52,541 nt of DNA from IMG/VR virus record IMGVR_UViG_2531839449_000043. One strand, given 5' to 3'. Source of the stretch: a virus (taxonomy: Duplodnaviria > Heunggongvirae > Uroviricota > Caudoviricetes). The position numbers were made by a program. Positions 1 through 3,000 of this stretch are shown in pieces (positions within the stretch are counted from its first letter, which is position 1; each line of letters begins with the position of its first letter).

Positions 1-3000
1 ATCATTGATGTGTTTGCCGGATACATCGTGGGGTGGCGGGTCTCATCGTCTATGGAAACGACATTCGTGCTGGATGCGCTGGAGCAGGCGTTGTGGGCCC
101 GTCGTCCGTCTGGCACCATCCATCACAGCGATAAAGGCTCTCAGTATGTGTCACTGGCCTATACGGAGCGACTAAAAGAAGCCGGATTACTGGCATCAAC
201 AGGGAGTACAGGCGACTCGTATGACAACGCGATGGCTGAGAGCATCAATGGTCTTTACAAAGCGGAGGTAATACACCGTAAGAGCTGGAAAAACCGTGCA
301 GAAGTGGAACTGGCCACACTAACGTGGGTGGACTGGTATAACAATCGACGATTGCTGGGAAGGCTGGGCCATACTCCTCCGGCAGAAGCAGAAAAAGCTT
401 ATTATGCTTCCATCGGAAACGATGATCTGGCAGCCTGAGTTCACAGATAAAACACTCTCCAGGAAACCCGGGGCGGTTCAGCCAGTAACCCGGGTCGTCC
501 GTGTGATTCGGGTTTACGTTTTTGCTGCGATTGTCTTTGTCTTTGAGAGTGGAAACCATATTTGCTACAGTTTCTGGTTTCTTTCCTTCAGCTTTTTCTT
601 TCAGTGTCTGCCCTGTTTCTGCAATGAATGGAATGCGGATTTCCATCTGGTAACCGTCTGCGCCAGTCTTTCTGTTTGTGGTTAATACTTTCTGGAGGAC
701 GAGTCCGATTTTCTTTCCGTGAAACTCAGGTGCAACATATTTACTGACGGAAACCATATGCTGCGTTAACTGCCCAATTCCTGTGCATCCCATCATGGCG
801 TGAATAATGCTCGCCCCAAATTTATTTTCAGTGCCGTCATTCTTCTGAACACAAACACTGAGATATTGGATTTTCCGTCCGTCGTCGGATTCTCCAGAAA
901 ACTCAATGAATCGGGCACCTTTTTCTGATTGCTTGAGTTCTGCTTCGGTGATGTTAATGATATGCGCACCCGTTTCGGTAATAAAACCACCTTGTCCGGC
1001 GGTCAGTGCTGATTCTTCGTTATAAGTAAAAATCACTTCATCCATTAGTTATTAACCCCCCATTGTTCTCCAAATACAAAACCAATTTCTGCCAGTGCTT
1101 CGTCCATTTTGTCGATGAACTCCGGCACCATCTCATCAAAACTCGCCATGTACTTTTCATCCCGCTCGACCACGACATAATGCAGGCCTTCACGCTTCAT
1201 GCGTGGGTCGTAGTTGGCGAAGTACCAGGCGTCCTTGTCTGTAACCCACATGCTGAATTGCACCTGGGCCATGTAAGCAGGCTTGATAGCGTCAAAGCCG
1301 CCAAGCCGGAACTTCATGAAGTCGCGGGAAGTAAAGGGGCATTTAAGCTCAAGACCGTTACCGTCACTGCATAAACCATCGGGAGAGCAGGCGGTGCGCA
1401 TGCTTTCGTCACGAAAAATTATGGGTGTTTCCGAGACGGTAACATCCGCGATAAATTCAAAGAGGGCACGGGCATCATCTTCATATTGCTTTCCCCATGC
1501 GAGCGACTTAGCGTTAACTTCCGGTGCCACGCCAGTACAAACTTCAGCCAGCAGGGTGTGGAAGTATGACATTTTTGTATCAGGCCATTTGCTGCCGGAA
1601 CGTGGCTTTGCTATCACATTGTGAACTTCTGAAGCAGTGATAACACCGAGTCTCAGCTTGTGCCATCCATCATCGCCCTGGTCGAGGCTGGTAATATCCA
1701 CGCCAGTTCGCTGGAGAATAATTTCTGGTGTCATGACACGGCCTCGCTGTTATTTTCCGTGGTGGCGTGAATTTTCGCTTCCGCCGTGGCCTTGTTTCTG
1801 GCAGCTTTCTTTTTGACAAAATCAAGCGTTTTGACAGCTTCTTCCTGAGAGAGAGCTTCATGTGATGCAATCGTGCGACGGAATGTTTTGGAACATACGG
1901 GAAGCAGGTCATCCCATGTCTTGTTAATTTCGGTGATTGCCTGAGTGATCTCATTGATAATCTCATCTGATGCGGGAGTGACGTCACGCTCAGGGATATG
2001 ATCAGCATTCAGGATGATACCTTCACCGGCCTGAGTGTTCAGGTAGTCGATAGCTGTATCCAGGCGATCGCGACGGGGCCAGTATTTGCTGGCGCGCTTA
2101 ACAATGGCTTTTCTGGCCATTTCATCGGGGAAACTATCCCACGGGCTACTTCCTCCGTTATTTCCGGCTTTGCTGCACGCCCTGATGACCTCGATTTCCC
2201 TGTTGCTCATCTCTTCGGTCAGATAGTCGCCTTCGGATGTTTTTACGACACAATAACCGCCAATGCGTGCGCCCCTGTCTACGAAGGGGTTGTATTTGTG
2301 CGTGGGGGCGCAGTCAATACCGTTGGACTCGTAAATGTCCTTCTCGTAAACAAGTTTGCATTGCCCCCACTGAATGGCTCCTGTGACCTGTGCCAGATGC
2401 AGAAGCCCCATATAACTGATATCCAGGCATACAGCCTTTTTTCGTGGGACCAGATACGCCAGCTTGCTGGCCGGGTTCAGGGTTATGCCGATGGCGGCAA
2501 CATTGATGATAGCGTTCTGTGCGCTGGGCAGATTTGCCCTTGCTGTGTCAGCCAGAAAGGCATTTTTCTGGAATTGCTGAATTGCAAACTGACTTTCCTT
2601 CGCCCATGTCAGCGTCGGTTCAGTTAATGCCTCGCAGAAAAAGCGCTCCTGCTGCTTAACAAATTCAACGATATCGAACATTTTTTGGTCCTGAAAATCA
2701 GAAAGGACAGGGGGAGAATTTTCTCTCCCATTCTTCTTCCGCCCGAGCATAGGCGATCGCTGAGATATAATCGTTGTACGCCTCTTCAGCTTTTTCGCCA
2801 GTGAGTGCTAGTTGGGCTTCTTTGGGTAAAAAAAGGCTGCTCATAAGCAATGGTTTATCGGGGAACATGCTGATAAGCTCCTGCGCCCGATCATCAATCC
2901 ATTTATCCTTTTCATCCTGAATTTGCTGATTAATCCAGCGACGCTCCTCTATGCGGTCGCAGGTGAGGTATGCGTTCATGGCGGAACTCCTGATTCCGGT

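Follow-up and report, generated by a model that had tools for sequence, protein, structure and literature searches.

IS629 joined to the 3' end of a predicted phage SSB gene in an argW-integrated Stx2a prophage

The DNA analysed here, 52,541 nucleotides of the IMG/VR virus record IMGVR_UViG_2531839449_000043 (called the window below), begins inside an insertion sequence (IS) and passes directly from it into the gene downstream of exo in a phage recombination module. The locus raises the question of which element is present, what the interrupted gene has lost and whether excision of the prophage is affected. The first-pass annotation had described an IS3-family element whose terminal repeat ends at position 480, a truncated gene to which it gave no identity, and a separation from xis and int that could impair excision. 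The element was confirmed to be IS629, a member of the IS3 family, and the gene is predicted to encode a phage single-stranded DNA (ssDNA)-binding protein (SSB) with a conserved functional C-terminal tip. The most probable explanation overall is a simple insertion of IS629 in codon 189 of this ssb gene, by which the protein core is kept and the docking tip lost. The features at the junction are the following.

1..480, plus strand: right-hand 480 bp of IS629 (nt 831-1310), identical at 480/480 positions to the AP000400 copy and to the IS1203 copies of loci L002 and L003
1..438, plus strand: C-terminus of the IS629 OrfB/transposase (DDE integrase core), 145 codons and stop, in frame from window base 1; Pfam rve, rve_3 and rve_2, NCBIfam transpos_IS3
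456..480, no strand: right terminal inverted repeat of IS629, 25 bp, ending ...GGTTCA, identical to the AP000400 feature 'inverted repeat from right end of IS629'
481..483, no strand: predicted right copy of a 3-bp target-site duplication, GCC, deduced from the 3-bp duplications in L002, L003 and L004; its left counterpart would be outside the window
245..481, minus strand: IS629-antisense extension, 78 codons and stop, fused to SSB codon 188, replacing the native QYGSDSF (from the translations)
482..1045, minus strand: predicted phage SSB gene (DUF669/N4-type), retained codons 1-188, downstream of exo
1045..1734, minus strand: exo, YqaJ/lambda-exonuclease family, intact (Pfam YqaJ, 2.5e-28)
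1731..2681, minus strand: RecT-family single-strand annealing protein, the presumed partner of the SSB tail (Pfam RecT, 2.1e-24; 951 nt/316 aa in relatives)

The loci cited are from CEC13091 (L002), ECP17-46 (L003), OkiPb01678 (L004) and 2015C-3121 (L018).

The IS629 end and the reading frame that it interrupts

Positions 1-480 correspond without a mismatch to the last 480 nucleotides of the IS629 copy of VT1-Sakai, which is annotated as a mobile_element of 1310 bp (AP000400, 24347-25656), and are equally identical to the copies in CEC13091 and ECP17-46, where the NCBI annotation (PGAP) uses the name IS1203, a synonym or isoform of IS629. With 480 identical positions out of 480, a chance match is not at issue. 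The window thus holds the right 37% of the element. The transposase fragment, comprising its last 145 residues, matched Pfam rve at 1.3e-17 and NCBIfam transpos_IS3 at 1.6e-47 (162.6 bits for a cut-off of 160; profile positions 238-369 of 369), so that both an rve-core DDE transposase and near-identity to the reference IS629 place the element in the IS3 family. The right inverted repeat terminates ...CCCGGGGCGGTTCA at 480, as the earlier description had it; its reverse complement, TGAACCGCCCCGG, pairs with the left repeat of full IS629 copies, including all 13 of the outermost 13 bases, which gives imperfect repeats of the IS3 type, 5'-TG...CA-3'. The programmed -1 frameshift between orfA and orfB is annotated in the full copies of relatives, and the corresponding region belongs to the left 830 bp of the element, beyond the window. 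Elements of this family produce target-site duplications of 3-4 bp.

Homology to IS-free phages begins exactly at position 481 and continues at 99-99.8% identity. The minus-strand open reading frame (ORF) with its start at 1045 has one base in common with the exo stop codon; it reads through the joint to a stop codon at 245-247 and encodes 266 aa. Its IS-free counterpart is 588 nt long and encodes 195 aa in Shigella phage Ss-VASD (gp20) and in E. coli 2013C-3181, CEC13091 and OkiPb01678, with the C-terminus ...NHTD(A/D)PGYWQYGSDSF. The native codons of the window gene end with codon 188 (Trp), and the joint splits codon 189 (479-481) after its first base. Seven of the 195 residues, QYGSDSF, are lost, and 78 IS629-antisense residues are gained. 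The proposal that the ORF reads into the IS and loses its natural C-terminus was thus borne out: a natural end before 481 would have spoken against it, and in IS-free relatives the stop codon lies 23 nt beyond that position. The same comparison with uninterrupted relatives shows that the loss is confined to seven residues and that the ORF is lengthened, not shortened.

Residues 189-240 of the fusion matched phrog_7803 (E 1.5e-7). The profile has 1642 positions and the match lies at its very C-terminal end, which suggests that other phage ORFs with tails read from IS629 have entered the PHROG clusters as if these tails were protein sequence. For annotation, the 266-aa ORF is best treated as an IS fusion and not as a new protein.

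The IS-free target sequence reads ...CGTACTGCC/AGTAACC. A 120-nt query spanning the junction found no single-piece match in 5,426 complete E. coli genomes and 50,697 phage records; the sole match with full coverage, in CEC13091, consists of two pieces joined across a different insertion site. Exact 36-41-mers of the junction gave 0 matches in IMG/VR, GTDB representative genomes and JGI metagenomes, and no record was found of the exact 266-aa fusion protein. All ten loci retrieved through the identical exo protein have an intact 195-aa ssb, the nearest of them being 99.0% identical and not isogenic. As judged from these searches, the junction site appears to be unrecorded.

Between 481 and 1045 the window differs from 2013C-3181 at two positions, 495, a natural polymorphism, and 491, a synonymous change. 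Both had been considered as possible scars of transposition, and this was rejected since 495T is naturally polymorphic and 491C synonymous. An 8-nt direct repeat, AACCCGGG, is present in the right repeat of IS629 (465-472) and in the target flank (487-494), 6 bp past the joint; the flank copy owes its existence to the C at 491, which is T in all relatives compared. The repeat may reflect the preference for targets resembling the inverted repeat that is known for some IS3-family elements, or may be due to chance.

The SSB and its C-terminal tip

The native protein matches phrog_743 (PHROG 743, 'single strand DNA binding protein') at 1e-68 and is 86% identical (163/189 aligned residues) to HkaK, the SSB of phage HK620 (hkaK, NP_112044). 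Purified HkaK was demonstrated to be a true SSB (Hutinet et al. 2018, PMC5928155). Many homologues and relatives carry the name DUF669 in their NCBI annotation, and DUF669 has been linked to the SSB of phage N4, with remarks on the acidic C-terminal tails (Kazlauskas et al., PMC4889955). In the Pfam-A scan no match was obtained for the native 195-aa protein of a relative at E <= 10 or for the fusion ORF at E <= 0.01, and the NCBIfam scan of the native protein returned noise only. An AlphaFold model built with 61 sequences (mean pLDDT 87) has a beta-rich core, as in an OB-fold ssDNA-binding domain, and a disordered segment at residues 177-188; this predicted core is complete in codons 1-188. 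Because of the phrog_743 match, the identity to HkaK, the link between DUF669 and N4 and the beta-rich predicted core, the gene downstream of exo is assigned, on homology and modelling, as a phage SSB of the DUF669/N4 type.

The end of the protein is strongly conserved. Among 113 full-length homologues the C-terminal residue is Phe in 105 and Tyr in 3 (108/113 F or Y), the penultimate residue is Pro in 66, and the last ten residues include at least two acidic and essentially no basic residues in 103. Several homologues end in DFDDDIPF, the tip of E. coli SSB. The residues lost in the window are, from this conservation, predicted to be the SSB C-terminal tip that docks partner proteins. The window allele has no disordered acidic tail with a free aromatic end, its last 7 aa being replaced; this is the lesion itself and not an argument against homology to SSBs. 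In complexes of E. coli SSB, the free carboxylate of the terminal Phe forms part of the contact. If the same holds here, the 78-residue extension alone would disable docking.

Removal of the last six residues of HK620 SSB reduces its stimulation of Sak4 recombineering ten-fold and abolishes the binding of Sak4 to SSB-coated ssDNA (PMC5928155). RecT-family annealing proteins recognise seven C-terminal SSB residues (Filsinger et al., bioRxiv 10.1101/2020.04.14.041095). From these parallels we infer that the fusion would still bind ssDNA and would fail to dock partners such as RecT. HK620 SSB, together with its engineered truncation by six residues, is a close known counterpart: the proteins are 86% identical, have the same length and the same position in a recombination module, and the defining lesion is the loss of the last 6-7 residues. 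The two differ in the tail (NDYPPF in HK620, QYGSDSF in proteins of the window type), in the partner (the RecA-like Sak4 in HK620, RecT and a YqaJ-type exonuclease as neighbours here) and in the additional 78-aa extension. Both ssDNA binding and stimulation of a recombinase partner have been shown for HK620 SSB only (PMC5928155). If the loss of docking is real, the window allele is a natural counterpart of engineered SSB delta-C mutants and could be used to probe whether RecT-type phage recombinases need the tail of their own phage SSB.

The ssb gene is part of a gamL-recT-exo-ssb recombination module. A protein identical to the window exo is widespread (7008 blocks of the collection), and the ssb gene is carried by 248 of the 5,426 complete E. 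coli genomes. The longest ORF for recT spans 1731-2750 on the minus strand (339 aa), starting 69 nt upstream of the start annotated in relatives (2681); this probably reflects only an upstream in-frame ATG.

Origin of the junction and consequences for excision

According to the simple-insertion explanation, a full-length IS629 (1310 bp) would have transposed into an argW-integrated Stx2a prophage and landed in codon 189 of the 195-codon ssb, which directly follows exo and recT in the leftward early operon; the transposase strand is opposite to the early genes. The fusion protein would coat ssDNA yet present no free acidic or aromatic C-terminal tip, with the neighbouring RecT as the most plausible partner affected, so that recombination driven by the phage would become weaker; lytic growth, toxin production and excision would change little. 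Beyond the IS would follow the GCC duplication, the last 23 nt of ssb and ~10-11 kb of ordinary prophage left arm, with xis, int and an intact argW at its end. The predicted left flank is ...CGCTGCCGTACTGCC followed by the ssb 3' end, and the predicted joint is ...TTAAAAACTATCGCTGCCGTACTGCC abutting TGAACCGCCCCGGAAATCC, with GCC on both sides of the 1310-bp IS.

Three relatives carry IS629-type copies within ~1.5 kb of the window site and in the same orientation. In ECP17-46 (O157:H7, NZ_CP040572; L003 6242-7551) the copy lies in the middle of ssb, with the duplication CCG, at a point equivalent to window 717-719; in CEC13091 (L002 5171-6480) it lies 43 bp past the ssb stop codon, with the duplication CTT; and in OkiPb01678 (L004 2171-3480) it lies in a yfdQ-type gene, with the duplication TTC. 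Beyond each of these insertions the left arm is normal. In 2015C-3121 (L018 3140-3837) an IS1 is found where recT is expected. Independent IS hits on the gamL-recT-exo-ssb-yfdP-yfdQ module among ~250 carrier genomes may indicate a mild regional preference.

Several points weigh against the favoured explanation. That the insertion was simple is inferred, since the window contains neither the left end of the IS nor the duplication or the left arm, and the same junction occurs in no other record searched. Matching duplications were reported at only 21 of the 47 IS629 copies in four O157 genomes, so that rearranged copies are not rare (PMC3271280). With regard to the function of the tip, QYGSDSF is less acidic than the canonical DDDIPF, the presumed partner is RecT whereas HK620 SSB was tested with Sak4, and the host SSB may compensate for the loss.

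Those rearranged copies speak for a different, unlikely scenario, the strong form of the excision idea in the first-pass annotation, in which IS629 marks a rearrangement: recombination between IS629 copies, or an adjacent deletion promoted by IS/IEE, would have removed or relocated the left arm (from the ssb 3' end to xis, int and attL/argW) and locked the Stx2a prophage in place. IS-mediated deletions are documented in O157 (PMC3271280), many Sakai prophages have IS-linked defects (PMC2669165), and since the window begins inside the IS nothing in it contradicts such an event. However, in all three relatives with nearby IS629-type copies the insertion is clean, with a 3-bp duplication, and the left arm normal, and intact Stx2a phages align at ~98% identity with 98% of the other 52 kb (tested for 481-25400). 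An in-frame start of the window inside a multicopy IS is, moreover, what an assembly break gives. The window starts in frame with the transposase and ends exactly at the yfdC start codon, and its left edge is most likely a contig edge or assembly break in a multicopy repeat; it marks an IS/assembly boundary and is not evidence of a crippled prophage. It is extremely improbable that the junction itself is an assembly chimera, in which overlapping IS629 reads were mis-joined to phage sequence and no insertion took place. The multicopy repeat at the window start and the uniqueness of the junction among the E. coli genomes and phage records searched would fit such an artefact, but the sequence switches from IS to phage precisely after the final base of the IS629 inverted repeat, as transposition produces, and the IS and the phage have no common sequence at the joint except the nearby 8-mer, so that a mis-join within shared sequence would not give such a break.

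A simple insertion could also be polar, in that leftward early transcription would end in the IS, the downstream genes including the xis-like gene would be under-expressed, and excision or induction would drop. This weak form of the first-pass idea on excision is very unlikely, even though the IS lies in the leftward early block upstream of ~20 genes and the xis-like gene and the position of IS629 in Stx prophages can alter spontaneous induction and virulence, as for phiPA2 compared with phiPA8 (PMC10810198); the effect in phiPA2 was traced to a disrupted methyltransferase gene and not to polarity (PMC10810198). In RM13514, the closest IS-free relative, int is on the strand opposite to the leftward early genes, which means that early leftward transcription cannot express int, and only the xis-like gene could be open to polarity. 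A consensus scan of IS629 for terminators and promoters gave nothing above shuffled expectation: terminator-like sites numbered 1 on the relevant strand and 2 in total, against 1.1 +/- 1.1 in shuffles, and this lack of an excess gives no support for strong polarity. N-antiterminated lambdoid transcription is also reported to pass IS-borne terminators (Adhya, Gottesman and de Crombrugghe 1974), which counts against polarity as well.

Nothing in the window shows that the insertion blocks prophage excision. A simple insertion of 1.3 kb at ~10 kb from xis and int touches neither these genes nor the att sites. The location of xis and int to the left, outside the window, agrees with RM13514; the idea that the IS separates them from the remainder and thereby impairs excision was not upheld, in view of this distance, the untouched att sites, int and xis, the opposite strand of int and the normal left arm of the three relatives. 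A more far-reaching proposal is that the fusion is a natural separation-of-function allele that, once expressed upon induction, coats ssDNA, excludes RecT and host SSB clients, acts as a dominant inhibitor of recombination or repair and thus measurably changes prophage recombination, induction or Stx output, the IS having been drawn by the inverted-repeat-like 8-mer AACCCGGG. We regard this as distinctly unlikely.

IS629 is the most abundant IS in O157-type strains of E. coli that produce Shiga toxin (STEC), with 62% of its copies in prophages (PMC3271280), and the present case is a commonplace event of a familiar type, at a site that appears to be unrecorded. Compared with VT1-Sakai, the 480 bp, the terminal repeat and the transposase C-terminus are the same and the insertion site differs, being found in no collection searched. 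ECP17-46 shows that the same ssb has already been hit by this element, in the same orientation and prophage module and with a 3-bp duplication; there the insertion is in mid-gene and the OB core is destroyed. CEC13091 shares the element, orientation, module and 3-bp duplication, but its insertion is intergenic and leaves ssb intact, whereas the window allele loses the 7-residue tip only. phiPA2 and phiPA8 resemble the window in having IS629 in the leftward early region of a Stx2a prophage; the phenotype there depends on the gene hit, an MT-A70 methyltransferase gene with a measured effect on spontaneous induction, in contrast to the SSB tail here (PMC10810198). The noteworthy aspect is that the conserved docking tip of a phage SSB is precisely removed, as in engineered delta-C mutants. 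Positions of IS629 are also useful as markers for the typing of STEC strains.

Prophage context and neighbouring features

The prophage is a Stx2a phage of the O145:H28 type, the 98% coverage of 481-25400 given above being provided by Lyz12581Vzw and related Stx2a phages. Its chromosomal junction is at the right end of the window.

51510..51533, minus strand: first 24 nt of tRNA-Arg argW (GTCCTCTTAGTTAAATGGATATAA), where the prophage meets the chromosome on the side of yfdC; identical over these 24 nt to argW of RM13514
51609-52541, minus strand: yfdC, adjoining the argW fragment

Because the first 24 nt of argW abut the late end of the phage, the phage integrates in the 5' part of argW. The window holds the int-distal att junction and not the int-proximal one; in relatives the intact tRNA gene, with phage-derived upstream sequence, is at the int-proximal end beside dsdC. 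The att repeat of Ss-VASD had no exact match of >= 12 nt in the window, which is consistent with integration of Ss-VASD elsewhere, and argW-integrated relatives were therefore used for comparison.

Leftward of ssb, RM13514 has 22 annotated features, of which 19 are intact genes and 3 are pseudogene fragments, including yfdP- and yfdQ-type genes and PAPS reductase-family, ea22-like, antirepressor and MT-A70 methyltransferase genes. These are followed farther left by the small helix-turn-helix xis-like gene, ~9.8 kb from ssb, by int on the opposite strand and by an intact argW beside dsdC.

Synteny with annotated relatives places, in the remainder of the window, a restriction-modification pair (BsuBI/PstI-type endonuclease and Eco57I-like methylase) at 6010-8429 on the minus strand, with the Rha regulator on one side and the repressor on the other. 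Three tRNA genes at 15044-15295 were called Met-CAT, Arg-TCG and Arg-TCT by ARAGORN, the first being Ile in the NCBI annotation of relatives. A 319-aa ORF (15386-16345) follows them after 91 nt, at the position of the Stx2 A subunit; the spacing is the same in RM13514. A 2806-aa ORF (42966-51386, plus strand), shortly before the att junction, corresponds to a protein annotated in relatives as LPD38 domain-containing.
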